DNA of 64,000 nucleotides. Source: Gammaproteobacteria bacterium (GTDB lineage: Bacteria > Pseudomonadota > Gammaproteobacteria > Eutrophobiales > Eutrophobiaceae). Below the pieces are notes generated by a model that searched no databases, was not told the DNA's origin, and was given only the letters and a program-made list of their open reading frames with translations. Both the position numbers and the translations under genes were made by a program. Location of the stretch: contig CBDBPJ010000006.1 in NCBI GenBank assembly GCA_965208655.1, positions 117,167 to 181,166 of the forward strand. The letters are read 5' to 3'. How positions within the stretch are numbered: the first letter of the stretch is position 1; every line of letters begins with the position of its first letter. Of this stretch, positions 4,550 through 28,400 are shown piece after piece.

Positions 4550-4580
4550 GGAAAATCTCTCCAAAAAATTGCGCAGCTCG

Positions 4581-4608: not shown

Positions 4609-4625
4609 TCAGCGAAAAATCGTGT

Positions 4626-7349: not shown

Positions 7350-7359
7350 TCTTCTCTCT

Positions 7360-9228: not shown

Positions 9229-9261
9229 AAATCCAGACCATCAGGGGACAATGCCACTAGC

Positions 9262-9347: not shown

Positions 9348-9464
9348 GGCTCAGCCAGGCGCCGATTGGCAGCGATGACATCCTGTCACTGTGTCTGTCC
9401 CGGCTTACCGTGGAAGGGATACCCGGATGACATACTCTTTGCCTGCCATACCGTACAACAGTTT

Positions 9465-9491
9465 GAATTAAGTGTTGCGTCCCCGGAATTC
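9465..9491. repeat. REP/MITE-like end GAATTAAGTGTTGCGTCCCCGGAATTC
   Basis: Similar to the inverted pair at 43749-43887. Confidence 0.6.
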
Positions 9492-9641
9492 TCTGGAATT
9501 CCCTTCTGCGGTTCCTGTTTTGCAATCTCAGCATTAAAGCGGGTTTTCGCCTTCGTCACAGTCTAATTCGCGGGCTGTTTCAACGAATCGCTTGTGCTGA
9601 ATGCTTTTGTCTTTTGTAGTCATTGAATGTCAGCCCACCCA

Positions 9642-10109
9642 TCATAATGGCGGACATTCGCGACTTATGATTTCACGCTGACTGCAATTCGGAGAGTATT
9701 GTTGCCCAGGGTTATAAAAAGGGATGTCTGGACGATAATCTGGTTTTAATGTCTCATCATGTTCACACGATGGGTATGTGATTGGGACCTCTCCTGCTGG
9801 AGTATGTTTGACTACATCCTTCATGATGCATCTTTCATAGGGACCGCACGTTACATATTCACAAGATTTTGAATTTTGGTCTTGTGCAAAAGCACTTTTC
9901 AGACCGCTAAAAAAACCGTATATTATTAGTATCGCAACGGCAAAGATGACGATTCCGGCTATTGCATCTTTATTGCCCTCTGAATCATTTATACCTGTGT
10001 CGTTATCTACATAATCCCAATTTGTTTTGGTTTCTGAGTTGGTCTGTGATGCTCTTTCCGCACTTTCCAGTTCTGCCTCCCACTTTGCAAGTTTATGTAT
10101 GATGTTCAT
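9642..10109 (-). CDS. Hypothetical membrane protein with Cys-rich C-terminus
   Basis: RBS GGGGG; one TM segment; low GC. Confidence 0.55.
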   Translation of the reverse strand: MNIIHKLAKWEAELESAERASQTNSETKTNWDYVDNDTGINDSEGNKDAIAGIVIFAVAILIIYGFFSGLKSAFAQDQNSKSCEYVTCGPYERCIMKDVVKHTPAGEVPITYPSCEHDETLKPDYRPDIPFYNPGQQYSPNCSQREIISRECPPL

Positions 10110-10235
10110 TGTCTAACCCCCTGTATTACGTAGTTAAGTAGCTTTCTGTTTTTCGTATTTTGTGCATTGTGCGACCTGACCCCGTTTGCTTGTTCCTAAT
10201 CCGCGATTAGTCCCTTATCAGCCACACTACAGAAT

Positions 10236-11543: not shown

Positions 11544-11572
11544 GTGCAGTTATCAGCTGTCACGCCTTCGTT

Positions 11573-13435
11573 CTACTCGTCCTGGGCCAGACGGAAGCCA
11601 AGGTAATTGTGGCGGCTCGAGCGGTCGCGCCAGTAGCGGTTGGCGGAACGCAGGGTCCCCGGAGAATCGGCCCAGCCGCCCCAGGAGCCGCCCCGAAACA
11701 CGCGTAGGCTGCACTCCTCACTCGTCCAGGCGCTGCCATCCGTCGGAGCGCCCTCATAACTGTTATTCCAGCAATCCTGTACCCACTCCCACACGTTGCC
11801 GTGCATGTCATGCAACCCCCAGGCATTGGCAGGGAAACTGCCCACTGGCGCAGTCTGTCTATCGTCCCACTGACTACCGCATCCATCACAGTTCGCCAAG
11901 TTGTGCCCTATGTCATCCCCCCAACTGTACTCCGTGGTGCTACCGGCACGGGCCGCATACTCCCACTCCGCTTCCGTCGGCAAGCGATAATTGCCGCCGG
12001 TCTTGCTGTTCAGCCAGTCAATGAAGGATTGGACATCGTCCCAGGAGACATAGATGACCGGGAGGCTGCCGCGGCCCCAGCCTTTATCATCCGGCGTGTA
12101 ACCGCCACAACCCCCGTCCGCCACACAGGCGTCCCACTGGGCAAACGTCACTTCGTGCTTGCCCAGCTGGAAGGCCGGCACCGTGACGCTGTGGACGGGT
12201 GTCTCATCACCATTACCCGCCCCGCTCAAATCCCCCATGCGGAAGATGCCGCCGGGGATGGCGACCATTTCACCGGCGTATTGCCTTGCTTCCGCTTCGG
12301 CTTGCTCTCTTTTTTTCTGCATCTCCGTCCAGTCTGCTAAAGTCATGCCCCCCAGTAACGCCAGCAATGCCGATGATACGCCGTTCTCCCGCGCCGTGTT
12401 AGCATCGCCGTACCTCGCTTTCGCCACTTCCACCGGCGTCTTGCCCTTTGGCCCCTTAATAGTGACATCAGCGCCGGCCTTCATCAGCAGTTCGATTATT
12501 TCCGTGTGCCCGTGCGCCGCTGCCATGAACAGCGCCGTGGCGCCGTCCGGGGCGCGAACGTCCATGTCCGCCTGCGCCTCCAGCAACTCTGAGACCAGCA
12601 CCAGATAACCCTTGTTCACCGTATGCATCAGCGCGGTCCAGCCGCGGCTATCGCGTGCGTCCAGGTCTACGCCGGCAGTAATAGCCGCTTTCAGGACCTC
12701 GATATCGCCCGACTGCACGGCATTGTGCAGGGCATCCGGTGAGACCGGGGGAGGGACGTTCGCTGCTGGTGGGGCGGGGGTTTGCGTTGTCCCGGCAGTT
12801 GTTGTTTCGCTTCCGGTTTGCGCAACGCCCTGTTGTTCTGCGGCTGCTTGTATGGCGCGCAGTGATTGTGGAGTCAGTGTATCCGTTTGCGGCAGCCCCA
12901 TATCACGCAGGAACGCCTGGTAAGCCGTCTTCGTGCTTGAGGTCCAGACGCCATCCGCCGGGCCGGGCTGGTAGCCGAGAGCGGCCAACAGGGACTGTGC
13001 CGCGCGTATCGCCTGCGGGGGTGGTTGGCCTGTGTCCTGTGCAGAGGATGATTCTTCGGTCTGCGCGATGGCCCCGCCGGGCTGCCAGGCCGCGGCTTTC
13101 TGTTGGGCTGTCGCCACCTGCGCCGGCGTCATCTGCGCGGCCAGTGCATCCCGCTCTTCCAGGGCCGCCGCCTCACCGCGGCTGGCTGCCAGGTTGAGCC
13201 ACTTGTGCGCCTCGACGTAGTCCTGCACCACACCCAGGCCCTGGCGGTACAGCCGCCCGAGTTCGAGCATCGCCCGGCGATCGCCGGCATCGCCCGCATC
13301 TCGCCAGTGGGACAGCGCCTCGTCCACGTTGCCTGCGTCCCAGGCCTGCTGGCCGGCCTCGAAATCCGCGCTTGCATGGGGTACTGCAATGAGCGCGAAT
13401 GTCAGGATTGCCGTTCGGATGATAGTTATGTGCAT
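11573..13435 (-). CDS. DGR target 5: signal peptide + Sel1 repeat + peptidoglycan-binding + ankyrin repeats + FGE-sulfatase (CLec)
   Basis: LGRLYRQGLGVVQDYVEAHKWLNLAA (Sel1); LAALGYQPGPADG (PG_binding_1); GWTALM/GATALFMAA/GKTPV (ankyrin); CLec core ending GFRLAQDE*. Confidence 0.9.
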   Translation of the reverse strand: MHITIIRTAILTFALIAVPHASADFEAGQQAWDAGNVDEALSHWRDAGDAGDRRAMLELGRLYRQGLGVVQDYVEAHKWLNLAASRGEAAALEERDALAAQMTPAQVATAQQKAAAWQPGGAIAQTEESSSAQDTGQPPPQAIRAAQSLLAALGYQPGPADGVWTSSTKTAYQAFLRDMGLPQTDTLTPQSLRAIQAAAEQQGVAQTGSETTTAGTTQTPAPPAANVPPPVSPDALHNAVQSGDIEVLKAAITAGVDLDARDSRGWTALMHTVNKGYLVLVSELLEAQADMDVRAPDGATALFMAAAHGHTEIIELLMKAGADVTIKGPKGKTPVEVAKARYGDANTARENGVSSALLALLGGMTLADWTEMQKKREQAEAEARQYAGEMVAIPGGIFRMGDLSGAGNGDETPVHSVTVPAFQLGKHEVTFAQWDACVADGGCGGYTPDDKGWGRGSLPVIYVSWDDVQSFIDWLNSKTGGNYRLPTEAEWEYAARAGSTTEYSWGDDIGHNLANCDGCGSQWDDRQTAPVGSFPANAWGLHDMHGNVWEWVQDCWNNSYEGAPTDGSAWTSEECSLRVFRGGSWGGWADSPGTLRSANRYWRDRSSRHNYLGFRLAQDE

Positions 13436-13485
13436 AGTCCAATCCCGTATTTTATTCATGTGTGGCCAATATCGGGCAGCGCACA

Positions 13486-14910
13486 CTACTCCGCCCTTTT
13501 CCAATATGTCGTGCCGTCCGGTCTCGTGCACTTTGTCGGGCGGCCGCAATCCTCACCCCTCCCATTATGGCAATAACGGAATTCACACGTATCGTACCCG
13601 CCACCGGACGTTGTGCCGGTCGTTCCGCCCCCACCGTATGTCCGGTTCACCTGATCGGCAAGACCTCTGAGCGATTCTGCCGTGTTCTGTAACGCCTGCC
13701 GCCGGTATTCCGCTTGCTGGCGCTGTTCCGCAAGGTCGTACTCCCGCTGACGCTGACGCTCTCGCTCGTCGAGTCGCCGTCGTTCCTCCCGCCTCGCCAA
13801 CCGCTCACGTTCCTCCTCCTCTTCCAGACGCGCCTGGCGTTCGCGTTCTTCCTCCTCCAACCGCAGCCGCGCCGCCTCCTGCGCTTCCAGGTCGTTCAAC
13901 GCGGACAGGTAGTCGCCGGGGACAGTGGCATCGTCGTAGGATGCCTGGTCCGTCTCTTCATTCGGACACTCGTTGCGCTGCATCCGCGCCCGCATCAGCT
14001 CGTACAGGCCGTGGCGCGTCGTGACCTCGTACACGCCCCAGCAGTCAGCGGCAAAGACGCCGACCCGCGCCGCGTCCCGGTCTGCCTCGCTGTAACGGTC
14101 ATCGGAGTTATCCCAGCCCGACCAGCCGTCGTCTTCGGTCCACTTCCCGGCGACCCAGTCGGCTGCCCCGGTCCGTGGGGAGTCCGCAACCTTACCGGCG
14201 GCGGGACTCGCTGCGCCTGCGTCTCCGAAACATTCGGGCGGCAGGGTCTCTGGGTCCACGACGCCGTAGCAGTGCGGGTGGGCGTCCTGTTTGGCCATGA
14301 CCCATTGCTCGAAGTCCCAGGAAGAGTCGGCAGGCTTAGCGCCGGCAGCGCCAGGTTCCTGACCGGTTTTTCCGGTCAGCGTGGCGGGGGACATCGGCCG
14401 GGGCTCAAGGTTGGATGCCGCGAATGTTGTCTTGGTCGGCGTCGGCAAGGGGTCCCCCTCCAGCAGCGAGGCATCGCTCCAGCCGCCGTTCTTATCACCT
14501 CCGTCGGTCGCCAGCGCCGCACGCGCATCGGTGAGACGCTCCCCGGTCCCGCTGACAAAACGTTTAATCTTCTGCTTTGCTGATTTCAACCTATTGGCAA
14601 TTGCTTGCGGGGCTTCCAAGACCGGAAACGCCCGCTTAACCAGCTTCCCCGGCGTCTTTGCCACTTCCCCCATGAGCTCGGAGACCGTTTCATCATCGCC
14701 TTCGATGAAGGCGCTGACCATCTCACCAAAGAGGTCGGTGGTCTCCGCCAGGGTCTCCTTCAGGGAATGGCCGGCGCCGGCGGTTCCCACGCCGCCGCTC
14801 AATCCGGCCCCGGCGGGGAGTGCGCACAACAGCAGGGCGCCCGCTACCAGAGTCACGGCGAGGCGCAAGGTGCGCGGGGGACGGCTTTTCAGGCAGTTCA
14901 TATCTATCAT
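13486..14910 (-). CDS. Hypothetical secreted protein with coiled-coil and Cys-rich C-terminus
   Basis: Signal peptide; E/R-rich coil; probably operonic with target 5. Confidence 0.7.
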   Translation of the reverse strand: MIDMNCLKSRPPRTLRLAVTLVAGALLLCALPAGAGLSGGVGTAGAGHSLKETLAETTDLFGEMVSAFIEGDDETVSELMGEVAKTPGKLVKRAFPVLEAPQAIANRLKSAKQKIKRFVSGTGERLTDARAALATDGGDKNGGWSDASLLEGDPLPTPTKTTFAASNLEPRPMSPATLTGKTGQEPGAAGAKPADSSWDFEQWVMAKQDAHPHCYGVVDPETLPPECFGDAGAASPAAGKVADSPRTGAADWVAGKWTEDDGWSGWDNSDDRYSEADRDAARVGVFAADCWGVYEVTTRHGLYELMRARMQRNECPNEETDQASYDDATVPGDYLSALNDLEAQEAARLRLEEEERERQARLEEEEERERLARREERRRLDERERQRQREYDLAEQRQQAEYRRQALQNTAESLRGLADQVNRTYGGGGTTGTTSGGGYDTCEFRYCHNGRGEDCGRPTKCTRPDGTTYWKRAE

Positions 14911-14948
14911 CAGTGTGTCCTCCGTTGCCGGTGTGGGTTATAACTCCC

Positions 14949-15884
14949 TCATTCAAGCAACGCTACCAGCATAAGGCGGCGCAGCGCGCAGATGTCGGTG
15001 TTGAGGCCGCACACGGCCAGCACGTAGGTGTCGCCGTCAGTAGTGAGGGAGCCGATGAGCAGTCGGCCTTGCCCCTCTGCCTCAAGTGCCATGTCGAGGG
15101 TGAGTTCAGTAGCAAAGCCGGCGGGCAGGGTTGCGAGCGCGGCGGCGGTGTCCGCATCGGTGTCGGGCGCCGCGGCTGTCAACACGGCCGGGTCGCGTGC
15201 GACAAGGGCATCCTCAATCGCGACCAGAACAGGCCGCAGCCATGGCCGCGCCTCGTCGGTCCACTGCGCCCGTTGCGTCAGGTTCCAGGCCAGGCGAGGC
15301 AGGGCCGCGCGCAGGGCCGCCGCGGCATCAGCAAACGTGGCGGCAGCGCGGCCGGGCTTGGTCGCACCAGGCGGGTGGGCCAGGCGGAAGGCGTCCAGGC
15401 GTGCCGCCGTGGTTCGGGACAGCGCCCCGACCGCGCCGTCCTGAGCCGATATCCAGGCCGGTTCGACCGCTACCTCAGCATCCGGCTCTGCCAGCCGCTC
15501 GCCGGGCAGGGCGCGGGCCGAGACCACGCGATAACCCGCTTCCTCCCGCGTCCACAGGGTGAGCACGGCGATATCGAGCAACGGGTCGTAGTAGAGCGCG
15601 GCCGGGCCGGTTGAGCGCAGGCGACCGAGCTTGACGATGGCGTTTGCAAAGGACGGACTCCACAACGCGGGCAGCGTTTCGCGGGCGACCATCCCCGCAC
15701 CGGGCAGGGCGGACAATACCTCCAATGCCCGCTCATCACCCGTCACAACCGCAGAACGCAAGGCAAGCGCCGAGGCGGCAAATTGGCGGGCGGGCGACTC
15801 CTCGGCTGAGTGCGCAGGCGCTGCAAGGAGCATGACCGCTACAGCAACCGGCAGGAGAAATCCCCGGAAGCGCTTATTCATCAT
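14949..15884 (-). CDS. Hypothetical secreted protein
   Basis: MMNKRFRGFLLPVAVAVMLLAAPAHSA signal peptide; 311-aa ORF. Confidence 0.7.
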   Translation of the reverse strand: MMNKRFRGFLLPVAVAVMLLAAPAHSAEESPARQFAASALALRSAVVTGDERALEVLSALPGAGMVARETLPALWSPSFANAIVKLGRLRSTGPAALYYDPLLDIAVLTLWTREEAGYRVVSARALPGERLAEPDAEVAVEPAWISAQDGAVGALSRTTAARLDAFRLAHPPGATKPGRAAATFADAAAALRAALPRLAWNLTQRAQWTDEARPWLRPVLVAIEDALVARDPAVLTAAAPDTDADTAAALATLPAGFATELTLDMALEAEGQGRLLIGSLTTDGDTYVLAVCGLNTDICALRRLMLVALLE

Positions 15885-16399
15885 CGCAGCGCCGGCCTGG
15901 CCGATAACAGGCGCGCAAAGACGCCGGCTCGGGGCGGCGGAAGCATCCGGGGTAATACGGATGATGCTTTGAAACGGGATTGTTCGGGACTTCCGGTGTC
16001 GGAAGCGGCTGACGCAGTCAGGAATCGTTCAGCAATCTTTTCTTTAAACGATGTGAGATAGTTATTATAACTATATGAAAATAAAATATTTATATGTATA
16101 TGGGGGGGGGGGGAGATCAAGCGCGCTGTACGCAATGCGATGTGCGAACAGGAAACTGCCTGCGCCGGACAAGTGTTCCAATGTCTTAATCACATACACA
16201 ACAATTATCTATAGCACTTGAATATAATGATGTCAATACCCTCCTTTGGCACTCTCTCTCTCACTCTCTCTCACTCAGTCTGCTCAGTCTGCCGCCCGGT
16301 TCATCATCATGACGGATGGCGCACCAGGCACTGCGGTCCGGCTCAAGACCGGCCCAAGCCAGGCGCTCGAAGCTGTCCAGCACATCATCAATGTCTGGC

Positions 16400-17090
16400 T
16401 GGCTGGGATTATCCTCTGGCGGCCAGCAATGCCGGGTCTGCCGGTGGCGGCGGTTTGCGCCAGGGAGTAACAAGCCGACAACCAAACCCGCCGGACACCT
16501 GTACCCGTAATCAGTCGCCGAGAGACAATCCCGCGGCTTGCGCTTGCGATTTCCGGTCGTCACGCGTCGCCGTATCCACGCGCAAGGCAATCATCCGACC
16601 CTGCGGCGCATGTAATGTGGTGCGTTCAGCCATTGGAATTTGTCAGCGGATCATCAGGCCCCGTTACAAACGGGGGGATCAAAGGGGGGACGCCCCCCTT
16701 GCAAGCACCCTGTATTCATGCGCAGCATGTAATACAGGGGTATACTCCCCTCCGTGAACGACAGTAACCGACTGTGAACGTGTTGTTCCCTGTAAGGATA
16801 ATCCGATGGTCTGTCGGATAACATCTCACAAGGCGTATCCGGTCGTTCGATTAGCGGGCGCTTATCCATCGTTGCCCACCCGGCCAGGCGGTTCACCCAA
16901 TACCGCATGAGCCGGAGCCGGCTGGCGCGTTTGGCCTGGTTCTTCTTGTACAACCTGTCCAAATCAACAACCAGGGCACGCAGGTCCACCCCTCGCAATA
17001 CGGCCCGAAGTCCGCCAGCAACGCCTCGCTAATCAGGGCAACCGCATACGTTCGGATTCTGCCACAGTGAACAGCAATCCGGCTGGAAAG
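16400..17090 (-). mobile_element. Degenerate mobilization module copy B
   Basis: Homolog of the small ORF (VDLRALVVDLDRL...NQAKRASRL), oriT-like GCAAGGGGGCGTCCCCCC region and frameshifted mobC. Confidence 0.65.
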
Positions 17091-18125
17091 CCCACCTCGT
17101 CTTTTGCGCAACTGGTCATTCCCGCAGCTTGCGCAGGACAATAACCCGGATTCATAACGTATGCGGTGATCCTGTCTGCGGAGTGAAAAAAAAACTTGAC
17201 TGCGCTGTCCATGGACTATACTTAACAGTAAGAGTACTGCTCTTGAGTAAGTGGGAGATTACGTCATGTCTGTGACCTGGTGTAACGCTTATTTTTCAGT
17301 CGGCAGGACTCATCCGATGCGTTTCATCCGCGGATGGCGCCTGCAGGCAACAACACTGCTTCTGGCAGCGACAGCCTTCTTTTTACCTGCCGTCTCATCC
17401 GCCCAGTCGATCACCGGTTTCACCCTTAACGACGTGGGTCCTGTCCAGGGTATAGAGCAGCTCACTGTGCAGTTCATGACCATCGCCGATGATGTTCCCT
17501 CGTCGGTTATGGGCGTTTACCCGCTGCGCATCGAGGACCGCGACACCGGGTACGGGACAGGTTTTACACAGGGGCTCGGCACGCTGTCGATGGGCGGGGA
17601 TGTCGGGATGGAACCGCGCGGGTGGATGGCGGGGGTGGGGGTAAAAGGCGATATCCTCGACCGCTCGAGCGTGACCGGCCCGGATCTGGCGCTGGTCGGC
17701 GATGCGTTATGGCGCTCGAGGTCGTTGGCGCAACCCGGGGAGCGCGTATCCTCGCTTGTGGCCACGACGCACCTGCGGCTGGGCATTGAGAGCGGCTGGA
17801 CGTACGCACTGCCGAGGGGCGGTTCCTTGCGGCCGCGCCTGGAAGCCGGGGCGCGCCGGGACGGCGCCGGTGCCCAATCCGCCTTCGGGGTGGTGCTGGG
17901 TGGCGGGATCGCCTGGAAGCATCCGCGTCTGGGCCTTGCGTTGGACGTATCGGGGAGGGCGCTGGTCTCGTATGAGGCCGGCGGCATCCGGCGCCGGGGC
18001 CTGGCGGCGGAACTGATATTGCTCCCGCACGCGGGGCACGACGTCGGTCTGGAGGTCACGGCTCGCTGGTGAACCGGAGCCCGTCCGTCAGGCCTGTTTT
18101 AACCCGGATATCCCATTGATGCGAT
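16590..18125. repeat. ~1.5 kb inverted repeat arm 1 (partner ~34270-35785)
   Basis: Shares mob module, intergenic region and a near-identical 273-aa ORF with the partner in opposite orientation. Confidence 0.9.
17251..18072 (+). CDS. Short exported protein with autotransporter-like beta-strands
   Basis: Signal peptide (…PAVSSA); PDLALVGDALW, LRLGIES, GARRDGAGAQSAFGVVLGGG, C-terminal LEVTARW. Confidence 0.65.
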   Translation: MGDYVMSVTWCNAYFSVGRTHPMRFIRGWRLQATTLLLAATAFFLPAVSSAQSITGFTLNDVGPVQGIEQLTVQFMTIADDVPSSVMGVYPLRIEDRDTGYGTGFTQGLGTLSMGGDVGMEPRGWMAGVGVKGDILDRSSVTGPDLALVGDALWRSRSLAQPGERVSSLVATTHLRLGIESGWTYALPRGGSLRPRLEAGARRDGAGAQSAFGVVLGGGIAWKHPRLGLALDVSGRALVSYEAGGIRRRGLAAELILLPHAGHDVGLEVTARW

Positions 18126-18194
18126 GCGCGCGCAGGATTCTGATGTGCGCCTTCCCTGGCGGCCACAAGACAAGCGAGGACGTATCAAGCGCAT

Positions 18195-18504
18195 TAACAC
18201 TTTCCTCTCCTGGCATCTCGGTTCCTCTGCTGTGTAGACGCAGCCGAGGTTAATGGAAAGTGGGTCAATGTTCAGTTGCCGCAGCGGGTCATTTTTGCAG
18301 TGCCGTTAACACCTTGTCTTTGAGCATTGACCTCCTCCCTGTAACCGGGTCCAGCTGTCGCGTATAATGTTCCCGGAAACAACGATCCATCAATCAGATT
18401 AGATAATAGACAAAGTGATAACTTAATGATCTAATAACACATTAATATATTATAATATCAATGACTTATAAATTTCATAGGACGGATTTCAAATCCGTCC
18501 CCGG
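18195..18504 (-). mobile_element. Island terminal region with att site (18480-18502) and arm-type motif (18410-18422)
   Basis: Reverse complement of 32210-32492; ends in GGACGGATTTCAAATCCGTCCCC. Confidence 0.8.
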
Positions 18505-18532
18505 TTTTGCCCAGGGGAGCCGAGGTGATACG

Positions 18533-19300
18533 GTGAGTGGGGAGATTGCACGGCAGGAGTTATTCCAGTACGTCATCAGGCTTGGGGACAATGCCTTGAT
18601 TAACGGCCAGCGCCTGGCTGAATGGTGTGGTCACGGACCGTTTGTGGAAGAGGATATCGCCATGACCAATATCGCGCTGGACCTGGTCGGGCGCGCCCGC
18701 ATGCTGCTGACTTACGCCGGTGAGGTGGAGGGCGAGGGCAGGACGGAAGATGACCTGGCTTATTTTCGCACCGGACGGGAATTCCGGAATTTTCAAATCA
18801 TGGAATTACCGGCGGGTGATTTTGCCTTCACCACGGCCAGACAGTTCTTCGTTGATGCGTATGATTATTTCTATTACCAGGCATTGCAGCACTCCGTTGA
18901 TTCCACCCTGGCCGGCATCGCGGCAAAAACCCTGAAGGAATGTGATTACCACCTGCGGCACAGCAGTGAATGGATGCTTCGTCTTGGTGACGGAACCGAA
19001 GAGAGTCATGCAAGAATCGGCGCGGCTGTGGCCGAGGTGATGCCGTTCACTTTCGAGTTCTTCGACGCGGACGGGATCGACCGGGCCATGCAGGCGAATC
19101 AAATCGGCGTGGACCTGAATACCGTCAAAGCGTTGTGGAATGAAAAAGTGAACAACGTACTCAATGAGGCCACGCTGGAACGGCCGGAACTGAAGTACAC
19201 CCGCAGCGGGGGAAGACAGGGCCTGCATTCGGAACACATCGGCTATGTGCTGGCTGAGATGCAGTCCCTGCAAAGAGCCATGCCGGGTCAGGACTGGTAA
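18533..19300 (+). CDS. paaC: Phenylacetyl-CoA epoxidase subunit C
   Basis: LGDNALINGQRLAEWCGHGP.VEEDIA.TNIALDL...KE.DYHLRHS; GTG start with GAGGTG RBS. Confidence 0.92.
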   Translation: MSGEIARQELFQYVIRLGDNALINGQRLAEWCGHGPFVEEDIAMTNIALDLVGRARMLLTYAGEVEGEGRTEDDLAYFRTGREFRNFQIMELPAGDFAFTTARQFFVDAYDYFYYQALQHSVDSTLAGIAAKTLKECDYHLRHSSEWMLRLGDGTEESHARIGAAVAEVMPFTFEFFDADGIDRAMQANQIGVDLNTVKALWNEKVNNVLNEATLERPELKYTRSGGRQGLHSEHIGYVLAEMQSLQRAMPGQDW

Positions 19301-19325
19301 CGCAGTATCCGTTCCCACTACCGCT

Positions 19326-19856
19326 ATGACAGCTATTCATACGTCAGCCACCGGCTCTTCCGGAAACTACCCGGACCGCGCCATCGACGAGATAAGAGTT
19401 CTTCTTGAACAGGTTGCCGATCCCGAAATACCGGTTTTAACCATCGCCGACCTGGGTATATTGCAGGACGTGTGCCGGCATGAAGGCAGGGTACGGGTCG
19501 TGATCACGCCTACTTACAGCGGTTGCCCCGCGATGCTGACTATTGAGCAGGATATCAGGACCGTTTTAACGGAAAACGGCTATGAAGACGTTGAGGTGGC
19601 AACACGGATCTCGCCGCCATGGACGACGGACTGGCTGAGTGAAGCGGGCAGGGAAAAGCTGTTGCAATACGGTATTGTTCCCCCGGCGGGTTCGGCTGAC
19701 AAACAAAGTTTGCGTATGCTGGATGCGGGTGTGGCTTGCCCGCGCTGCCGGTCCGCCGCTACGGAAGAAATCAGCCGTTTCGGTTCAACTCCTTGCAAGG
19801 CCTTGTACCGGTGTAACGATTGCCTGGAGCCGTTTGATTATTTCAAGTGCATATAA
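19326..19856 (+). CDS. paaD: Phenylacetyl-CoA epoxidase subunit D (PaaJ/PaaD)
   Basis: VADPEIPVLTIADLG...TPTYSGCPAM...CPRC...FGSTPCKALYRC..C.EPFDYFKCI. Confidence 0.92.
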   Translation: MTAIHTSATGSSGNYPDRAIDEIRVLLEQVADPEIPVLTIADLGILQDVCRHEGRVRVVITPTYSGCPAMLTIEQDIRTVLTENGYEDVEVATRISPPWTTDWLSEAGREKLLQYGIVPPAGSADKQSLRMLDAGVACPRCRSAATEEISRFGSTPCKALYRCNDCLEPFDYFKCI

Positions 19857-20939
19857 ATGCCGGAATTTCATCCGTTAACCATCGGCGACATCATCAAAGA
19901 GACGGATAACGCAGTTTGCCTGACGTTCGACGTACCTGCCGACCTGTCCGAAACTTACCGGTTTATCCAGGGCCAGTACCTGACCCTGAAGGCCGAGATA
20001 GACGGCGCCGAAGTCAGACGTTCCTATTCCATTTGTTCCGGTGTTGACGACGGGACCCTGCGGGTTGCCGTAAAAAAAATCACCGGCGGCGTGTTCTCTA
20101 CGTTTGCAAACGAGAGACTTGGCAACGGCGACGTGATGGAAGTCATGCCGCCCCAGGGGACCTTTTTCACGCCATTACACGAGGAAAATGCACACAATTA
20201 CCTGTGCATCGCAGCCGGCAGCGGCATCACGCCGATCATCTCGATTATCAAGACCGTATTGAAACGCGAGCCGCACAGCCGGGTCACCTTGTTATACGGT
20301 AACCAGCGGGTGGCGACGATCATGTTCAAGGAAGAACTGGAAGCGGTAAAAAACCGCTACATGGCCCGCTTCCAGTGGATCAACATCCTCAGCCGGGAAC
20401 GCCAGGACGTGGAAATCCTGAACGGCCGGATTAACAACAGAAAAGGCGCTGAACTGATCCGGCACCTGCTTGACCTGCGCGCCATTGACGAGTTTTTTCT
20501 GTGCGGTCCCGAGGCGATGATATCGGAAGTTTCCCGGGGACTACGCTCCGAGGGTATTAACGAGCGTAACATCCATTACGAACTGTTTGCCGAATCAGCC
20601 GAAGCAGCCGCGGCAAGAGTGGCAAAACACCATGAACGGGCGATTAACCTGGCCGGCATGGTGGCGCAGGTCAGCGTCAATGCCGATGGCCGTGAAACCC
20701 GGTTTGAATTGAGCGCTGACGGCCAGAACATCCTCGACGGCGCCCTGGATAACGGCGTCGACCTGCCGTTTGCCTGTAAAGGCGGCGTTTGCGCAACCTG
20801 CAAGGCAAAACTGCTGGAAGGGGAAGTGGATATGGACATCAACCACGCCCTGGAGGCTGACGAACTGGCGGCGGGTTATATACTCACCTGCCAGGCACAC
20901 CCGGTTTCGGACCGGGTCGTCGTCGATTTCGATGAATAA
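19857..20939 (+). CDS. paaE: Phenylacetyl-CoA epoxidase reductase subunit (PaaE/PaaK)
   Basis: RRSYSIC, AAGSGITP, C-terminal 2Fe-2S CKGGVCATC...C. Confidence 0.93.
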   Translation: MPEFHPLTIGDIIKETDNAVCLTFDVPADLSETYRFIQGQYLTLKAEIDGAEVRRSYSICSGVDDGTLRVAVKKITGGVFSTFANERLGNGDVMEVMPPQGTFFTPLHEENAHNYLCIAAGSGITPIISIIKTVLKREPHSRVTLLYGNQRVATIMFKEELEAVKNRYMARFQWINILSRERQDVEILNGRINNRKGAELIRHLLDLRAIDEFFLCGPEAMISEVSRGLRSEGINERNIHYELFAESAEAAAARVAKHHERAINLAGMVAQVSVNADGRETRFELSADGQNILDGALDNGVDLPFACKGGVCATCKAKLLEGEVDMDINHALEADELAAGYILTCQAHPVSDRVVVDFDE

Positions 20940-20945
20940 CAGACA

Positions 20946-21863
20946 ATGAAGCAGGTCAGCAGATTGCTGGCGGAGTTTGCCTCCCGTAAACCCATACGCA
21001 CAGGATCGCTGATCATCAGTGTGTTCGGTGATGCGGTCTCTCCCCACAGCAGCGCCGTCTGGCTGGGCAGTCTGATCAAGGTACTGGAACCGTTCGGGTT
21101 GAACCAGAGGCAGATTCGCACGGCGGTGTTCAGGCTGGTGCAGGAGGACTGGCTGGTTGCCAGGCAGATGGGCAGGCGCAGTTATTACAGCTTTACCGGG
21201 GCGGGCCAGAGGCATTACGAAAAGGCCGCGCGCAGGATTTACCATGCCAAGCGGGAGCTCTGGGACAGAAAGTGGACCCTGGTATTGCCGACTTCGTGCG
21301 ACAACCGGGAAAAGGACCTGTTGCGCAGGGAGTTATCCTGGCTCGGTTACGGCGCGTTGACCCCGGGCATGCTGGGGCATCCTTCCGGTGACCGGCAATC
21401 GCTTGATGAAACCCTGCTGGAACTGAAACTGACGGACAAGGTGGTTGTATTAATCGCCAGTACCGAGGACGTTGCCTCCCGCGAAGTATTGAGGAAGCTA
21501 TGCCAAGACTGCTGGGGCCTTGCCGGGATAGAGAAAAGATACAACCATTTTATCCAGCGTTACGGCACGATATACCGGGCGCTGAGGAAGGCGAAGCAGC
21601 GGGATGACGAGCAGTGTTTCCAGGTCCGGACCCTGCTCATCCATGAGTACCGGCGTATTCTGTTGCAGGATTCCGATCTTCCCGAAGAACTCCTGCCGCC
21701 GAACTGGCCGGGCGCCTCGGCATATAACCTGACAAAGAATATATACCATACCGTGCAGCAGGGCTCAGTTGACTACCTGATGAGGAACATGGAAACAGTC
21801 GAAGGAGGACTGGACGGACCCGGCAGGAGTTTCTATTCGAGGTTTGACGGCGCCGCAGTATAA
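20946..21863 (+). CDS. paaX: Phenylacetate degradation regulator PaaX
   Basis: SLIISVFGDA...VWLGSLI...RTAVFRL; LIHEYRR.LL.D..LP.ELLP..WPG. Confidence 0.92.
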   Translation: MKQVSRLLAEFASRKPIRTGSLIISVFGDAVSPHSSAVWLGSLIKVLEPFGLNQRQIRTAVFRLVQEDWLVARQMGRRSYYSFTGAGQRHYEKAARRIYHAKRELWDRKWTLVLPTSCDNREKDLLRRELSWLGYGALTPGMLGHPSGDRQSLDETLLELKLTDKVVVLIASTEDVASREVLRKLCQDCWGLAGIEKRYNHFIQRYGTIYRALRKAKQRDDEQCFQVRTLLIHEYRRILLQDSDLPEELLPPNWPGASAYNLTKNIYHTVQQGSVDYLMRNMETVEGGLDGPGRSFYSRFDGAAV

Positions 21864-22031
21864 TATCCGGCTTGTTACGGGATATTCGGGTAAAACAAAC
21901 GAAAACCTGCCAGGGAGAGTACATATTACCCTTTGCAACCGTTTACATTACCCCGCACCTCTGTATATTCTAAGGAAAACCGTCTATGTTATCTGCGTAT
22001 AAAAAGTAAAAAACGAGCGAGGAAGAAAGCG

Positions 22032-23657
22032 ATGTTAGGTCTGATGATGGACAGGCAGTTGACCATTACCTCAATAATGGAGCACGCCGACAGGTACCAT
22101 CCCGACACGGAGATTGTCTCCGTCACCAATGACAGTCCAAGGCACAGGTACACGTATGCAGAGGCATTCCGCAGGACCCGGCGCCTGGCGAACGCCTTGA
22201 TCGACTATGGTATAGGGGCCGGGGAGCGTGTCGCTACCCTTGCCTGGAACGATTACCGCCACTTTGAGTTATATTACGCCATTGCGGGGATCGGGGCCGT
22301 CACCCACACGGTCAACCCGCGCCTGTTCCCTGATCAGATCAGCTATATCGTTAACCATGCAGAAGACAGGCTGGTGTTCGTTGATCCGCTTATCCTGCCG
22401 GTGCTGGAGAAAATCAGGGATGATCTGTCCGGCGTTGAAGCCTATATTGTTTTAACCGACGAAGAAAACATGCCGGATACGGACCTGCGCAACGCCCAGT
22501 CCTACGAAGGCTTCATCAGCCGGCATGAGGACCGGATTGACTGGCCTGAACTGGATGAGAAGACCGCGTGCTGCCTGTGTTATACGTCCGGAACGACCGG
22601 TAATCCCAAGGGTGTTCTGTACCATCATCGCTCGATGGTGTTACATACACTGGTCGGCATCTCTCCGGACGGGCTCAACCTGTCGGTACGGGACGTGGTT
22701 ATGCCGGTCGTGCCCATGTTCCATGTCAACGCCTGGGGCCTGGCTTACGGGGCGCCGGCAGTGGGAACGAAACTGGTCTTTCCCGGCCCGAAGATGGGGG
22801 ACGGGGCGACCCTGCAGGCGTTGATTGAAGAGGAAGAGGTTACTTATTCCGCCGGGGTGCCCACGGTATGGCTGAACCTGCTGAAGTATCTTGCAGAATC
22901 CGGCAAAGGGGTCAGCACACTGAAACGGGTGGTCATCGGCGGGTCGGCCTGCCCCCGTTCGATCATGGAGGAGTTGGAAGATCGCCATGGGGTTTATGTC
23001 AACCATGCCTGGGGTATGACGGAGATGAGCCCCCTGGGTACGGTCAATACCCTGAAGCCGGGGATGCTGCAACTGCCGCGGGAAGAGCAATATGCCGTAA
23101 GAATGAAGCAGGGGCGCCCGCTTTACGGCGTCGAGATGAAGATTGTCGATGATGACGGCAATGAGCTGCCCAGGGACGGACAGGCAACTGGGCTGCTCAA
23201 GGTACGCGGGCCGTTTATCTGCAGCGAATACTACCGGGAGGATACCCCGAGTGACGTACACGATGATGACGGCTGGTTCAGTACGGGAGACGTAGGCTCC
23301 ATAGACGCCGAAGGTTACCTGCAGATCACCGACAGATCCAAGGATGTCATCAAGTCCGGGGGCGAGTGGATCAGTTCCATCGACCTGGAAAACGCGGCGG
23401 TAGGCCATCCCGACATCGCCGAGGCTGCAGTGATCGGGGTGCCGCACCCGAGGTGGGGGGAGCGCCCATTGCTGATCCTGGTCAGGAAAGAGGGCGGGGA
23501 TGCGGGCAAGCAGGAAATCCTGGACTGGCTCAAGGACAGGGTGGCAAAATGGTGGGTGCCCGATGATGTGGTCTATGTTGACGAGATCCCGCACACGGCG
23601 ACGGGGAAGATACAGAAAACCGAACTGCGCAAACGCTTCAAGGACTATGTGATTTAA
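22032..23657 (+). CDS. Long-chain acyl-CoA ligase (AlkK/DmdB-like)
   Basis: [42 protein letters not shown]. Confidence 0.9.
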
Positions 23658-23660
23658 CAA

Positions 23661-23747
23661 GATATTTGGGGTCAGAGTAAAAATACTTGATAATTCAATG
23701 GAAACACCTGTCAACCTGAGTGTATTTTTACTCTGACCCCAAATATC
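23661..23747. repeat. REP doublet: 26-bp perfect inverted repeat GATATTTGGGGTCAGAGTAAAAATAC with 35-nt spacer
   Basis: Arms 23661-23686 and 23722-23747; related hairpin at 58218-58249. Confidence 0.85.
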
Positions 23748-23783
23748 ACCCCAAATGTCAAAATATCCGGAATTTCCCGACTG

Positions 23784-25043
23784 ATGAACAGCAAACGAGA
23801 AGCGCGGCACCATACGTTGCCCGCAACCAGTGAAACCATACACTGGGGTTATTTCAGCAAGAACGTCGAGCCTGCACTGACCGTCATGTCGGGCGACTTC
23901 ATTACTGTCGAAACGCTGAGCCACCATGCCAATGATGATGCCTCGTTGATGGTGGATGGCGATCCGGGCGCCGAGAGTGTGTTCCGCTGGACCAGGGACG
24001 GCAAGGGCGTTGACCGCCGCGGCGCCGGCCCTGTGGATGCGTCGCTGTTCGGCCGCGGCGCGGGAGAAGGCCTGGGCGTGCATATCCTGACCGGGCCCGT
24101 TTATATCGAGGGAGCGGAGTCTGGCGATATCGTGGAAGTCCGCATTCTCGACCTCAGGCCCCGTCCCAGCGCCAATCCCGATCACCCGGGCAAGGCCTTC
24201 GGCAGCAACGCCGCAGCCTGGTGGGGCTACCATTACCAGGATCTGATCACCGAACCCAGGCCGCGCGAAGTCGTCACCATCTATGAAATTGACGTAACCG
24301 GCGAGCGTACCTGGGCCAGGGCGCTGTATAACTACCGCTGGGTGCCGCAGACCGACCCGTACGGTGTGGAACACGCCACCATCGATTACCCCGGTGTGCC
24401 GGTCGACCATGACACGGTTGATAAAAACAGTTCGGTTTTGCCCGGCGTGCGGGTACCGATCCGCCCCCATTTCGGCACCATGGGCCTGGCGCCCGTGGAG
24501 GCCGATTTCGTCAATACCATTCCGCCGGGCTATTTCGGCGGCAACATCGATAACTGGCGCATCGGCAAGGGCGGCACAATGTATTACCCGGTGGCGGTGC
24601 CGGGAGGTCTGCTGAGCGCCGGCGACCCGCACGCGGCCCAGGGCGATTCCGAACTGGCCGGTACGGCGATAGAAACCTCGCTGACCGGCGTTATCCAGGT
24701 CATCCTGCATAAACAGGACGCGCTGGCCGGCACCGTGTTACAGGGGCTGGACTACCCGTTGCTGGAAACCGATTCGGAGTACGTCGTGCACGGTTTCAGC
24801 TACGCCAACTACCTGGCCGAGCTTGGCGAAGACGCGCAGAGCGAGATAAACAACAAGTCGTCGGTTGACAACGCCATGCGCGATGCGTTCCGGAAAATGC
24901 GCAAATTCCTGATGAATGCCAAGGGGTTGAGCGAAGACGAGGCCATCACCCTGATGTCGGTGGCGGCCGACTTCGGCGTAACCCAGGTAGTTGACGGCAA
25001 CTGGGGCGTGCATGGTATTATCCCTAAAGGGATTTTTCCTTAA
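23784..25043 (+). CDS. Acetamidase/formamidase family protein
   Basis: IHWGYF, HILTGPVYIEGA..GD, GGNIDN, GDPHAAQGDSE. Confidence 0.9.
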   Translation: MNSKREARHHTLPATSETIHWGYFSKNVEPALTVMSGDFITVETLSHHANDDASLMVDGDPGAESVFRWTRDGKGVDRRGAGPVDASLFGRGAGEGLGVHILTGPVYIEGAESGDIVEVRILDLRPRPSANPDHPGKAFGSNAAAWWGYHYQDLITEPRPREVVTIYEIDVTGERTWARALYNYRWVPQTDPYGVEHATIDYPGVPVDHDTVDKNSSVLPGVRVPIRPHFGTMGLAPVEADFVNTIPPGYFGGNIDNWRIGKGGTMYYPVAVPGGLLSAGDPHAAQGDSELAGTAIETSLTGVIQVILHKQDALAGTVLQGLDYPLLETDSEYVVHGFSYANYLAELGEDAQSEINNKSSVDNAMRDAFRKMRKFLMNAKGLSEDEAITLMSVAADFGVTQVVDGNWGVHGIIPKGIFP

Positions 25044-25106
25044 ACGGAACCAGGCAAGGTCTCCGGCGGAAATGACTGTTGGCTTGAATGATTAAATCAG
25101 GGGGGA

Positions 25107-25469
25107 ATGATGCTGGATACAAGTTTACTGAATGACCTGGTCGGCTGTTATCTTGTCCTGGCCATTGGTTATAATATTCTCAGCCTTGTCCTGTATGACG
25201 TGAAGGGGCAGCCGCTCACTTCCAATAAGCCGGTCCAGGCCATCGTCCTGGTGGCGCTGCTCTACGTGATTTACGTGAGTGAAGCCGCGCTGGGCAGCGG
25301 CGCCTGGATGTTTCTGATGATCGTGTTCCTGCTGCTGATTCTGCGCTTCGGCGTTTACCAGCACCTGGCAGGTTACGATGAAAACAAGTATTTCTCCCGT
25401 AGCGCATGGGTGGCAGCCATTGCGATCAATGTCTTTGGTGTCGCCGTCCTGACGTTGTCCCTGTTTTAA
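25107..25469 (+). CDS. Small hypothetical membrane protein
   Basis: About 4 hydrophobic segments; RBS. Confidence 0.65.
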   Translation: MMLDTSLLNDLVGCYLVLAIGYNILSLVLYDVKGQPLTSNKPVQAIVLVALLYVIYVSEAALGSGAWMFLMIVFLLLILRFGVYQHLAGYDENKYFSRSAWVAAIAINVFGVAVLTLSLF

Positions 25470-25477
25470 CCCGGATA

Positions 25478-28400
25478 TCACAGCGCCAACAGGCTGGCGT
25501 TCCCGCCGATGGCCGCGCTGTTGACGCTACAGGTCTGTTCCGTGGTAAAACGTAACAGGTAGTGGGGGCCGCCGGCCTTTGGCCCCGTCCCCGACAAACC
25601 GCAACCGCCGAAAGGTTGCACACCCACCACGGCGCCGACCATGTTACGGTTTACATACACGTTGCCGGCGCGGATACGCTCGCGTATATATTGTGCCCGT
25701 TGTTCGATACGGCTCTGTATGCCCAGTGTCAGGCCGTAACCCAGCCCGTTTATCCGCTCCAGGAACGCATCCAGTTTTCCGGCATCGTAGCGCAGTACAT
25801 GTAATACCGGTCCGAATATCTCCTCTTTCAGATCGGACAAAGACTCGATTTCGATGATCGCCGGGGATACGAAATAACCTTGTACACCGGTGCCGGGTCC
25901 GCGGTATAACAGCCTGCCGTTTTTCCGTGCGCTGCTTATGTAATCTTCAAGCCGGGTCTGCGCCGCCGGGTCGATGACGGGTCCCATGTCCGTATCCAGG
26001 CGGGCCGGGTCCCCGACGACCCATTCATCCATGTGTTTTACCAGGAGTCCCAGCACCCGCGCTGCGATCTCGTTTTGCAGGCAGAGTACGCGCAGGGCCG
26101 AACAACGTTGACCGGCGCTGTTGAACGCGGATTGCACTGTGTCCCGGACTACCTGTTCCGGCAGGGACGAACTGTCGACCAGCATGGCGTTGATGCCTCC
26201 GGTCTCGGCAATCAGGTTCGCCAGCGGACCGTACCGTGCAGCCAGGTCAAGATTGATGCGCCGTGCGGTTTCCGTGGAACCGGTAAAGGCCACACCGGCG
26301 ACCCTGGGATCGTACAGCAGGGCATTGCCCAGTTCAGGACCTGAGCCGGGCAGGAATGCCAGTACCTCTTTGGGTATGCCCGCTTCGTACAGCAACTCCG
26401 TGAGCCGGTAAGCAACGAGGGATGCCTGCTCCGCGGGTTTGGCGATGACCGTATTACCTGCCGCCAGCGCCGCCGCTACCTGGCCGGTATATATGGCGAC
26501 GGGAAAGTTCCACGGGCTGATACAGACAAACACGCCGCGGCCGCAAAGCTGCAAACTGTTGGTTTCACCCGCGGGACCGGGCAGTTCAAGGTCCGCGCCC
26601 ATCAGCCTGCGGCAGCAAGCGGCATAGTAGCGCAAGAAGTCTATGGCTTCGCGTACGTCATCGTGTGCGTCGCGCAGACATTTGCCGGCTTCCAGCACGC
26701 ACAATGCAGCCAGTTCTGCCAGGTGTGCCTCGACGATATCCGCGGCCTTCTCAATAATACCGGCCCGGTGTTCGGCAGTGGTACGGCGCCAGGAGGTAAA
26801 CGCTTCCGCGGTAACGGCCAGGGCCTGTGCCGCAATGCCGGGGGTGGCGTCCCATACGCGTCCCACACGCTCACAGGTATCGGCAGGATTGACTACTGTC
26901 CTGGATTTTCCGCCCAGGCGTTTACCGTTGACTACGGGGGCGGCTGTCCATTCCCGCGCACGGGTTCGGGAGACGCTTTCGAACAGTGATAAAAGTTCCG
27001 CGTGGTCGGCAAAATTCAACCCGCGTGAGTTTCTCCGTTCCGGCCGGAACAGGTCCGGCGGTACCGGGATGCGGGGATGGCGCGTTACTTCGTTGTTACG
27101 CTCTGTTGCGGCCACAGGGTCCGCGACCAGTTCGGAAACGGTGATATCCCGGTCGGCAATGCGGTTGATGAATGACACGTTGGCGCCGTTTTCCAGCAGA
27201 CGGCGCACGAGATAGGGTAGCAGGTCTTCGTGCGCGCCTACCGGCGCGTAGACACGGCAGGGAATATTGAGACCTTGCACATCGGTAACGGAGTCGTACA
27301 GTTCCTCACCCATGCCGTATAACCGCTGGAATTCAAATGCCCGGTCCCCGGCGTGATGATGGATGTAACTGACCGTATGGGCATTATGGGTCGCAAACTG
27401 CGGGTAAATGTACGGACATTCCGCAAGCAGGAAACGGGCGCAAGCCAGGTAGGAGACATCGGTATTGCGTTTCAGGGTAAACACCGGGTAGTCCGTCAGA
27501 CCCTGTTCCTGGGCCCGCTTGACCTCCATGTCCCAATAGGCGCCCTTTACCAGGCGCACGGGAATGATGCGTTTCTGTGCGCGGGCAAGCCGGCCGAGGT
27601 TTTCCAGCAGGCGCAGGGCGCGTTTCTGGTAAGCCTGTACCGCCAGTCCCAGCCCCGCCCAGTCGCGCAGGTCGGGATGGCGATAAATCCGGTTGAACAC
27701 CTGGAGACTGATCTCAAGCCGCTCAGCCTCCTCCGCATCGATAGTCAGGGCTATTCCAGCGCTACGGGCGGCTTTCCCGAGGCGCAGCATCCGGTCTGCC
27801 AGTTCGGAAACCGCGCGGGTGGACTGGCCGGGTTCAAACCGGGGGCAAAGGGAGGAAAGCTTGACCGAGATTCCGGGGCGTTCCTGAACCTGCATCCCGC
27901 TGCCAACGACATTGCCAAGGGCCTCAATGGCCTGTTTATAAGCCAGTTCATAACAGTCCGCAGCAGCACCGGTCAGGGCCGCTTCACCCAGCATATCGTA
28001 GGAAAATCGATAATGCCGCAGGCCGTCCGTCTCACTGCGGCGCAACGCCTCGTCAATAGTGCGCCCCATGACGAATTCATCCCCCATGATTTTCATGGCC
28101 GCTTTCAGCGCCGCGCGCAGCACCGGCTGTTCGAGCCGGCTGAGCAGTTTGCGCAGCAGGTCCAGCGGCGCCGGTGCAGCGCGCACTCCGGTATAAAGAA
28201 GCTTTCCCGTCAGCATCAGCCCCCAGGTAGACGCGTTCACGAACAGGGAGTCATCCTGCCCCAGGTGCTGTTCCCAATCGGCGGATTTCAGCCTGTCGGC
28301 GATCAGTGCGTCCGCGGTGCCGGCATCGGGTATCCGCAACAACGCCTCCGCCAGGCACATCAGGACCACGCCCTCGTGAGAGGAGAGGTCATAATGGTTG

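Follow-up and report, generated by a model that had tools for sequence, protein, structure and literature searches.

A paa operon split at the attachment repeat of a tyrosine-integrase island family, probably by an integrase-linked inversion

How does an operon come to be cut in two at the edge of a mobile island? The question is raised by a 64-kb stretch of genome G000 (contig C6, positions 117167-181166; hereafter the window). Here paaC (18533-19300), paaD (open reading frame (ORF) 19245-19856) and paaE (19857-20939), all on the + strand and intact according to Pfam, stand apart from paaAB and follow the end of a genomic island. The initial annotation of this sequence proposed that a second island, of a family also seen further to the right, had integrated into a repetitive extragenic palindrome (REP) between paaB and paaC. 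Our analysis shows that the split arose when two palindrome sites exchanged partners reciprocally, and not by a simple insertion. We further consider it probable that an inversion linked to the island integrase split the operon and that a second, nested one was of like origin, with two islands of the family, L and R, lying at one junction of each.

As had been noted, paaA and paaB are outside the window. Their only strong matches in the genome are on another contig, at C1:479721-480545 and C1:480680-480937, respectively. The region containing both genes (C1:479721-480948) is followed by ACCAGGACCGGGACAGG, a perfect palindrome, CCATACCCGGATTAATT and an aldehyde dehydrogenase gene on the opposite strand, past which lie MTTB-family and dimethylglycine-dehydrogenase-like genes. 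The genes are joined in relatives: paaB immediately precedes paaC in 16 of the 17 same-genus genomes that have paaC (in the remaining one it is at a contig end), and the same is true of G033 and of one genome of another family. The palindrome was found within 4 of the 15 paaB-paaC spacers read (G015, G016, G014 and G012), and lies mid-spacer in spacers of 74 bp (G015, G016) and 64 bp (G014). The 74-bp spacer consists of the half found on C1 in G000 and the half found in the window, where CCGGTTTTGCCCAGGGGAGCCGAGGTGATACG at 18501-18532 (+ strand) leads up to paaC exactly as in the spacers of G015 and G016. The cut in the operon therefore falls exactly on the ancestral repeat, which both products retain. 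Judged from these spacers, the palindrome between paaB and paaC is ancestral, and the paaB-repeat-paaC arrangement implied by the initial annotation is present in G015, G016 and G014. In G002 and G008, a different, GGGGTCAGAGTAAAA-type repeat occupies the spacer, so this spacer has been colonised by different repeat families across species.

On the window side of the cut, 18195-18504 had been described as the reverse complement of the island end further right. BLAST of the window against itself agrees: 18195-18267 pairs with 32493-32421 (91.8% identity) and 18286-18504 pairs with 32426-32208 (92.2% identity), and a repeat-finding run on the window returned identical arms. The repeat is larger than noted, as the whole inverted repeat covers about 1.94 kb (16566-18504 versus 35792-32208). 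Its inner part, a shared module at 16566-18131, is 87-96% identical to the inverted copy at 35792-34265 and also occurs at C7:255487-256906. Between the inner and outer parts, 63 bp of the left copy (18132-18194) correspond to a 1,771-bp segment of the right copy (32494-34264) with a degenerate IS1595-type transposase ORF (32574-33347). A clean insertion sequence (IS) was ruled out for this segment, in which neither clean terminal inverted repeats nor a target duplication were found. At least three exact 27-bp tandem repeats lie within the transposase ORF, at 33146-33237. In contigs from public sequencing runs, other copies continue like the right-hand copy beyond position 18131.

Both copies end in the same 21-bp palindrome, GGACGGATTTCAAATCCGTC(C/T), at 18480-18500 and 32212-32232, and the left one stops 32 bp before the in-frame GTG of paaC at 18533 (about 30 bp in the initial annotation). 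The common form of the two is GGACGGATTT-C-AAATCCGTC(C/T). At 18480-18500, where island L meets the paaC-side spacer, the palindromic repeat and attachment (att) core reads GGACGGATTT-C-AAATCCGTCC. A third, variant copy (TGGCGG...) is found at 45357-45377. These three window sites give 6 matches over both strands, against 0.00 expected (20-mer, up to 3 mismatches, 100 shuffles). As a DNA hairpin, the palindrome at 18480-18500 folds at -9.1 kcal/mol (z -3.9). Both inverted copies have the centre TTTCAAA on the + strand; read in element orientation the central base thus differs (G versus C), in line with the initial annotation.

The segment 18195-18504 is the integrase-distal end of island L, comprising an AT-rich arm and the att core. 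The arm (18195-18479, - strand) is non-coding and is likely the P' arm of the att site. It has further copies at 32233-32493 (+ strand), which is the AT-rich end of island R, and at C7:256898-257173, and its last 120-135 nt recur at C1:414996-415128 and C6:450782-450900. Two of these AT-rich end copies, at C7:255487-257173 and C6:450784-450900, adjoin degenerate palindromes with no integrase of the family nearby and are probably island remnants; the C6 copy is 6 kb from the contig end. An Rfam scan of 15500-19000, with E up to 1, found no family, and the idea that the island end is a known RNA was rejected on that result.

Island L as a whole spans 20.4 kb (C6:115253-135666) and begins 1,913 bp left of the window, in which it takes up positions 1-18479 (- strand, from the AT-rich end towards the integrase end). 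The matching half-site, GGACGGATTTCAAATCCGCCA, is at C6:115253-115273, and a 393-aa tyrosine integrase of the P4/CP4-57 type is encoded at C6:115419-116597. Pfam assigns to the island cargo a reverse transcriptase fragment of the diversity-generating retroelement (DGR) type and genes with FGE-sulfatase domains. The prediction of a second, DGR-bearing island of the same family that extends to the left of the window was therefore correct. Island R (32212-45377, 13.1 kb) has att cores at both ends. Its attL (GGACGGATTTCAAATCCGTCT, 32212-32232) follows a LuxR-type gene, and G016 has a clean palindrome at the same position; its attR (TGGCGGATTTCAAATCCGTCC, 45357-45377) lies 145 bp beyond the integrase gene (44030-45211, - strand). 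The 393-aa product has the Pfam domains Arm-DNA-bind_3, Phage_int_M and Phage_integrase, with PF13356, PF22022 and PF00589 matched in the integrases of both islands. A third intact island of 6 kb occupies C1:414998-420996. The integrases of islands L and R are 94% identical, and these two and that of the third island (C1:419652-420830) are 94-100% identical; all have the three domains. A PRK09692-like NCBIfam match scores under its cut-off, and the PDB matches of the island integrase are CP4-like integrase N-domains.

The island ends indicate how the family attaches. The free repeat (attB) reads GGACGG-ATTTNAAAT-CCGTCC, the AT-rich ends read GGACGG...CCGTC(T/C) and the integrase ends read TGGCGG...CCGTCC, giving hybrid cores at 6/6 ends. 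The AT-rich ends of islands R and C1 have CCGTCT and that of island L has CCGTCC, with an integrase-end hybrid as in R and C1. These hybrids point to an attP core that would read TGGCGG-ATTTNAAAT-CCGTCT, i.e. TGGCGGA-TTTNAAA-TCCGTCT. Furthermore, the 13-mer GTTATCACTTTGT (18410-18422 in island L) has one copy close to either end of every island, always in one element orientation, 58 bp inside the AT-rich end and 110 bp inside the integrase end. It has 3 matches in the window versus 0.05 expected, is present also at the integrase end of island L, and is a candidate arm-type integrase site. No Xis/AlpA-type family was found among the scanned ORFs, a scan in which small ORFs were not searched exhaustively. 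That island L might consist of two islands in tandem, with an attP between them, was considered and rejected: even when up to 4 mismatches are allowed, no core-like site lies inside it, and the genome has only three integrase-end arms.

The second parental site of the exchange is revealed by what lies outside the integrase end of island L, where genes for a B12-binding corrinoid protein, a TauD/GBBH-like protein and a TonB receptor are found. In G016, the corrinoid gene and the aldehyde dehydrogenase gene are separated by TAATCATCGG, the palindrome and CCATACCCGGATTAATT, in that order; G016 thus combines the sequence outside island L with the sequence that follows paaB on C1 in G000. In G033, the corrinoid gene adjoins the aldehyde dehydrogenase/MTTB locus without the repeat, and in G014, G015 and G001 it abuts the MTTB gene. 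Since these loci are joined in relatives, two ancestral sites have swapped partners reciprocally. The products are a clean junction on C1 (paaB-palindrome-aldehyde dehydrogenase) and the junction in the window (corrinoid gene-[island L]-paaC). An integrase, an att half-site and then paaAB had been anticipated upstream of the window; the first two are there, but the corrinoid gene is found in place of paaAB.

The corrinoid protein gene and an MTTB-family gene are adjacent or near-adjacent in G014, G015, G001, G016 and G033 and are likely a pair. The same exchange, as a large inversion, also splits this methyltransferase/corrinoid pair in G000 (L009:11514-12242 and L008:12644-14335, on contigs C6 and C1). 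In another strain or species, represented in public run X21, loose ends at window positions 18480 and 18502 join the corrinoid-gene flank and the palindrome to a third flank (TCTACAGCCAGGTATCAAGG...), which in G033 borders the AT-rich end of an island. The repeat beside the corrinoid gene may thus be a recurrent breakpoint, as seen in single contigs; most of the public runs listed cover only small shares of the 64-kb stretch.

To describe the rearrangement we divided the chromosome into blocks, with 12-19 kb stretches mapped onto G014, G015 and G016. Block P is paaAB, S3 runs from paaC to the LuxR-type gene, S1 is a hydantoinase and permease block, X is the aldehyde dehydrogenase/MTTB locus, S2 runs from the TonB-receptor gene to the corrinoid gene, and S4 lies right of island R; N1 and N2 are long intervening chromosome stretches outside the block mapping. 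S3 (18501-32211, + strand) holds paaCDE, paaX, an AMP-ligase gene, an amidase gene, putA, lrp and the LuxR/MalT-type gene, and is flanked by the inverted AT-rich ends of islands L and R. From the relatives, the ancestral circle is (P, S3, -S1, -N1, -X, -S2, S4, -N2), and the order in G000 is (P, X, N1, S1, S2, [L], S3, [R], S4, -N2). Two inversions account for the difference between these orders, and they do so in one sequence of events only. The first inversion would have exchanged paaB/paaC with corrinoid/X. The second, nested within it, would have exchanged luxR/S1 with the TonB-receptor end/S4 and flipped S3, L and S2 together (about 39 kb), leaving both island ends facing the paaC-to-luxR block as inverted repeats.

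Several observations bear on these inversions. The distance from the paaB-paaC site to the corrinoid/X site is 1.55 Mb in G014 and about 1.7 Mb in G015 and G033. Where paaC and the corrinoid gene share a single contig, they are in opposite orientation in G014, G015, G003 and G033 and in the same orientation in G001. Two sites so oriented in most relatives, roughly 1.5-1.7 Mb apart, would fit a large inversion as the form of the exchange. All four breakpoints of the two inversions are at the palindrome, i.e. at att-type sites, and G016 has a clean palindrome at 4/4 parental sites. Each inversion has one clean repeat junction (C1:480967 for the first and C6:110054 for the second) and one junction with an intact island (L and R, respectively). 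The GC skew of S3 is +0.031, versus a contig background of -0.034, and the positive skews of S3 and S2 are within the top 3.7% and 6.8% of same-size contig segments, which fits a recent local inversion.

What do the four breakpoints have in common with the target of the islands? The attB of the family is a dispersed 21-bp palindrome, GGACGGA-TTTNAAA-TCCGTCC, and not a tRNA gene. A tRNA or transfer-messenger RNA (tmRNA) 3' end was rejected as target because the window and 6 related loci encode neither RNA. With up to 2 mismatches allowed, the palindrome has 30 sites in the genome, which also contains 30 perfect 10+1+10 hairpins. Its stem variants (ATTT/AAAT, AATT/AATT, ACTT/AAGT and CAGA/TCTG) are compensatory and correctly paired, and any base can stand at the centre (T6, C10, A6, G8). 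In its dispersed, extragenic location and its compensatory stem changes, this imperfect palindrome is like a REP. We call it REP-like because the only gene resembling a REP-associated tyrosine transposase (RAYT) is flanked by a different palindrome: the sole Y1_Tnp match in the genome (C1:152410-152733) stands between GGGTCAGAGC and GCTCTGACCC. The locus of this gene (C1:152268-153020) has the flanking palindrome GGGTCAGAGC(ATTT/ATAT)GCTCTGACCC, to which the GGGGTCAGAGTAAAA-type repeat of the G002 and G008 spacers is similar. As the RAYT-like gene belongs to this other palindrome family, a RAYT was rejected as the cause of the rearrangement.

The architecture of the palindrome can be read as two inverted 7-bp core sites around a near-symmetric 7-bp overlap, TTTNAAA, in which N alone is asymmetric. 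In G033, the two ends of island b have different central bases (A at the AT-rich end, T at the integrase end), and the empty site in G000 has A. A mismatch at the sole asymmetric overlap position thus seems to be tolerated, which would support a site without fixed polarity. The suggestion in the initial annotation that the palindrome accepts either orientation is plausible in light of this symmetry and of island b. Distant relatives of the integrase (55-83% identical; loci L058, L060 and L061), including some in metagenome-assembled genomes labelled Bryobacterales and Gemmatimonadetes, have an upstream palindrome of another sequence, TGGCGGA-GAG(A/G)GAG-TCCGCCA, whose arms are those of the island-side half-site in G000, and lack a tRNA gene in the vicinity. 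The targeting of palindromes may predate this genus.

The normal mode of this island family is simple insertion at the palindrome. The site of the C1 island is a clean empty repeat in G016 and G014 and is occupied in G033. Among 7 islands of G033 with paired ends, both flanks are adjacent in G000 for 5, with a clean palindrome there in 3 of those 5; one of the others is at the C1 site in common with G000, and the last has a flank lacking a G000 match. Of the 23 genus genomes searched, 3 have close integrase homologues, namely G000, G033 and G016, with 3, 8 and 2 copies, respectively. In genomes other than G000, 10 of 11 close homologues (at least 89% identical) have a hybrid core about 145 bp upstream, and each outer flank is different. 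Precise empty sites are thus found in relatives for the family. There is none for island L, because its two flanks come from two different ancestral loci.

As the mechanism, we prefer an exchange catalysed by the integrase itself. One att end of an island already in the chromosome would have recombined with a free palindrome at another locus, and the outcome would have been an inversion. Recombinase sites with symmetric spacers lose polarity. With its near-symmetric TTTNAAA overlap, the palindrome would likewise offer sites without fixed polarity, at which inversion would be as allowed as insertion. Of about 30 palindromes, the 4 at the junctions hold two of the three intact islands (hypergeometric P = 0.039), a co-location that we regard as suggestive. 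A broader account would be that a P4-type integrase lineage shifted from tRNA genes to a palindromic repeat, that its islands land at dozens of loci in either orientation, and that their att ends recombine with free repeats to flip tens of kb to Mb of chromosome, splitting both the paa operon and the corrinoid/methyltransferase pair. We consider the case for this broader account to be evenly balanced.

A number of points weigh against the integrase-linked reading. The evidence for a role of the integrase is the position of the breakpoints and the co-location of the islands, and the P value for the latter is modest and post hoc. Heterobivalent integrases usually pair attP with attB or attL with attR, so that attL or attR with a bare attB would be a non-standard pairing. 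In G033, which has 7-8 islands, 6 of the 7 paired-end islands have flanks that are syntenic in G000 (the 5 empty sites and the shared C1 site). The palindromes at the LuxR-type and TonB-receptor parental sites are known from G016 alone; G016 has diverged flanks around the TonB-receptor site, and the repeat is missing from this site in G014 and G015. As the junctions of the large inversion are on different contigs, its size is taken from relatives, and the source for the paaB-palindrome-aldehyde dehydrogenase junction on C1 is the assembly. Finally, no promoter-like site points from the island end towards paaC, and 2 promoter-like matches point into the island. An outward promoter supplied to paaC by the island end was therefore rejected. 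No terminator-like site was found at the island end near paaC.

Homologous recombination could give the same arrangement if islands had occupied both parental sites in inverted orientation, a RecA-type exchange had taken place within their 2-20 kb of shared sequence, and one hybrid island had later been excised precisely. All of these are common processes, and prophages or islands present as inverted copies often give rise to inversions. G000 has 3 intact and at least 2 remnant island copies with modules that are 87-97% identical, and the precise empty sites indicate that excision or non-occupation leaves a clean palindrome. However, each inversion would take four events (two insertions, recombination and excision), this series would be needed twice, and no junction in G000 retains islands on both sides. 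We therefore consider homologous recombination between islands unlikely.

More doubtful still is recombination of palindrome with palindrome, by short homology over 21-25 bp, followed by chance insertion of islands L and R. REP-type repeats are known recombination points, all 4 of the 4 breakpoints are palindromic, and two of the junctions are free of islands. On the other hand, 21-25 bp is very short for a RecA-type exchange, and the only RAYT-like gene is flanked by the other palindrome family. Chance would also have to place two of three intact islands on the junction sites, for which the P value is given above.

It is very improbable that the operon is really intact and that the assembly was mis-joined at the palindrome or at the 1.9-kb inverted repeats. 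The assembly is in 10 contigs, and related strains in public runs have the end of paaB directly before paaC (loose ends at 18540). In contrast, an independent k-mer contig (a 143-nt Logan contig from run X19) covers 18440-18582, comprising the island end, the palindrome and the start of paaC, with 0 differences from the window. Run X19 may be the source sample of the window assembly. Furthermore, the shared repeat at the junction is just 21 bp, the long repeats differ by 3-13% plus the 1.77-kb insert, S2 and S3 have a GC skew in line with a genuine inversion, and four novel junctions would need mutually consistent errors. Simple insertion of island L between paaB and paaC, with paaAB just past the integrase end, can be dismissed: the island, its integrase, its half-site and the ancestral spacer palindrome are all present, but the corrinoid, TauD-like and TonB-receptor genes lie outside the integrase end and paaAB are on C1 with a clean palindrome after paaB, so this explanation is refuted unless C1 and C6 are both chimeric. 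From the original proposal of an island in a REP between paaB and paaC, we thus retain the ancestral spacer palindrome, as a REP-like repeat, and replace the insertion by a reciprocal exchange.

The islands also carry other features. In island L, a DGR-like cassette spans 3603-13549. It includes a 254-aa reverse transcriptase ORF with weak RVT_1 and group-II reverse transcriptase matches, and at least 4 genes with C-terminal FGE-sulfatase domains, one of which also has ankyrin, Sel1 and peptidoglycan-binding domains. Repeats of 140-300 nt, in 4-5 occurrences each, are probably variable or template regions. Closer to the palindrome is a 273-aa ORF (17251-18072, + strand; duplicate at 34328-35149, - strand) that matches no Pfam or NCBIfam family. 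By eye, its product has a signal-peptide-like N-terminal hydrophobic stretch and a barrel-like C-terminal aromatic residue. We rejected an IS110-type or bridge-RNA-type element at the repeat, since this ORF belongs to no family and the mobile enzyme is a tyrosine integrase. Island R encodes a 525-aa RTX-repeat (HemolysinCabind) protein at 36209-37786. Around this gene are module copies that are 75-89% identical (35348-35860, 38174-38581 and 40046-40450), with another at the left edge of the window (358-1121).

G000 also encodes integrases of a second family, which share 42% identity with the island integrase. There are 4 copies, whose matches to the island integrase are near-identical (C1:97289-98332, C1:526665-527708, C1:751419-752462 and C7:411109-412152). 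A 480-bp module lies about 1.7 kb from each of them and has further copies in the window at 16557-17027, 375-851 and 35265-35792. This family looks like another multi-copy mobile element with a module common to islands L and R.

Taken together, an operon split and two chromosomal inversions coincide, to the base, with the attachment site of a mobile island. If the inversions are indeed integrase-linked, this suggests that a repeat-targeting tyrosine integrase is able to reshape a bacterial chromosome without long homology. It would be the bacterial counterpart of the integrase-driven chromosome flipping of Thermococcales, with one selfish island family flipping segments. The system also provides a naturally occurring case of an integrase whose target is 21 bp long, palindromic, present in many copies and orientation-free, which bears on the evolution of target choice away from tRNA genes and may be of interest to those seeking integrases with a short, simple attB. 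For annotation, there is a warning that G000 neighbourhoods around these repeats may be products of recent rearrangement rather than functional linkage. Cases in point are paaCDE separated from paaAB, the corrinoid gene parted from its MTTB partner, and the hydantoinase block next to a TonB-receptor gene.

The tyrosine-integrase island is a known kind of element; the palindromic-repeat target and the associated inversions set the present case apart. Lost polarity is familiar from Cre/loxP and FLP/FRT with symmetric overlaps, where the same pair of sites gives either inversion or deletion. Those sites are engineered and served by simple recombinases, whereas the site described here is natural and the central base alone breaks its symmetry. 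No REP-targeting tyrosine-integrase island was found in the literature searched, which largely lay outside subscription journals; REP-targeting IS were found.

The closest relatives by integrase are the P4/CP4-57-type islands (Arm-DNA-bind_3; Islander-type, PMC4383910). The integrase domain architecture is the same. Further shared features are an integrase gene at the island edge (about 145 bp separate it from the att site), a core duplicated on both sides, precise empty sites in relatives and variable cargo. However, their target is a tRNA or tmRNA 3' end, whereas here it is a dispersed extragenic palindrome (30 perfect hairpins). Here there are also many loci, several copies per genome (3 in G000, 8 in G033) and a near-symmetric overlap. 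By target, the islands resemble the IS110/IS1111 and IS3-family elements for which REP sequences are known targets (PMC1525189 and PMC12288879), in that they land harmlessly at an extragenic palindrome that is dispersed in many copies. Those IS are small and use DEDD or DDE transposases, in contrast to cargo islands of 6-20 kb with a heterobivalent tyrosine integrase and attL/attR hybrids.

For the inversions themselves, there is experimental precedent in Thermococcus (PMC5495485). The pTN3-type inversions of Thermococcales are likewise large and end at tyrosine-integrase sites, with the integrase able to invert DNA between att sites. They are archaeal, use tRNA-gene sites and a relaxed, homology-like integrase activity, and have been shown experimentally, whereas those described here are bacterial, use a palindromic repeat and have an inferred integrase role. 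A further parallel is the tripartite ICE3, an integrative and conjugative element of Mesorhizobium, in which att-site recombination of integrated elements also rearranges large chromosome segments (PMC5882170). ICE3 has three dedicated integrase/att pairs and a programmed assembly, whereas in G000 one integrase family and one repeat family are associated with the rearrangement, with no sign of a programme.

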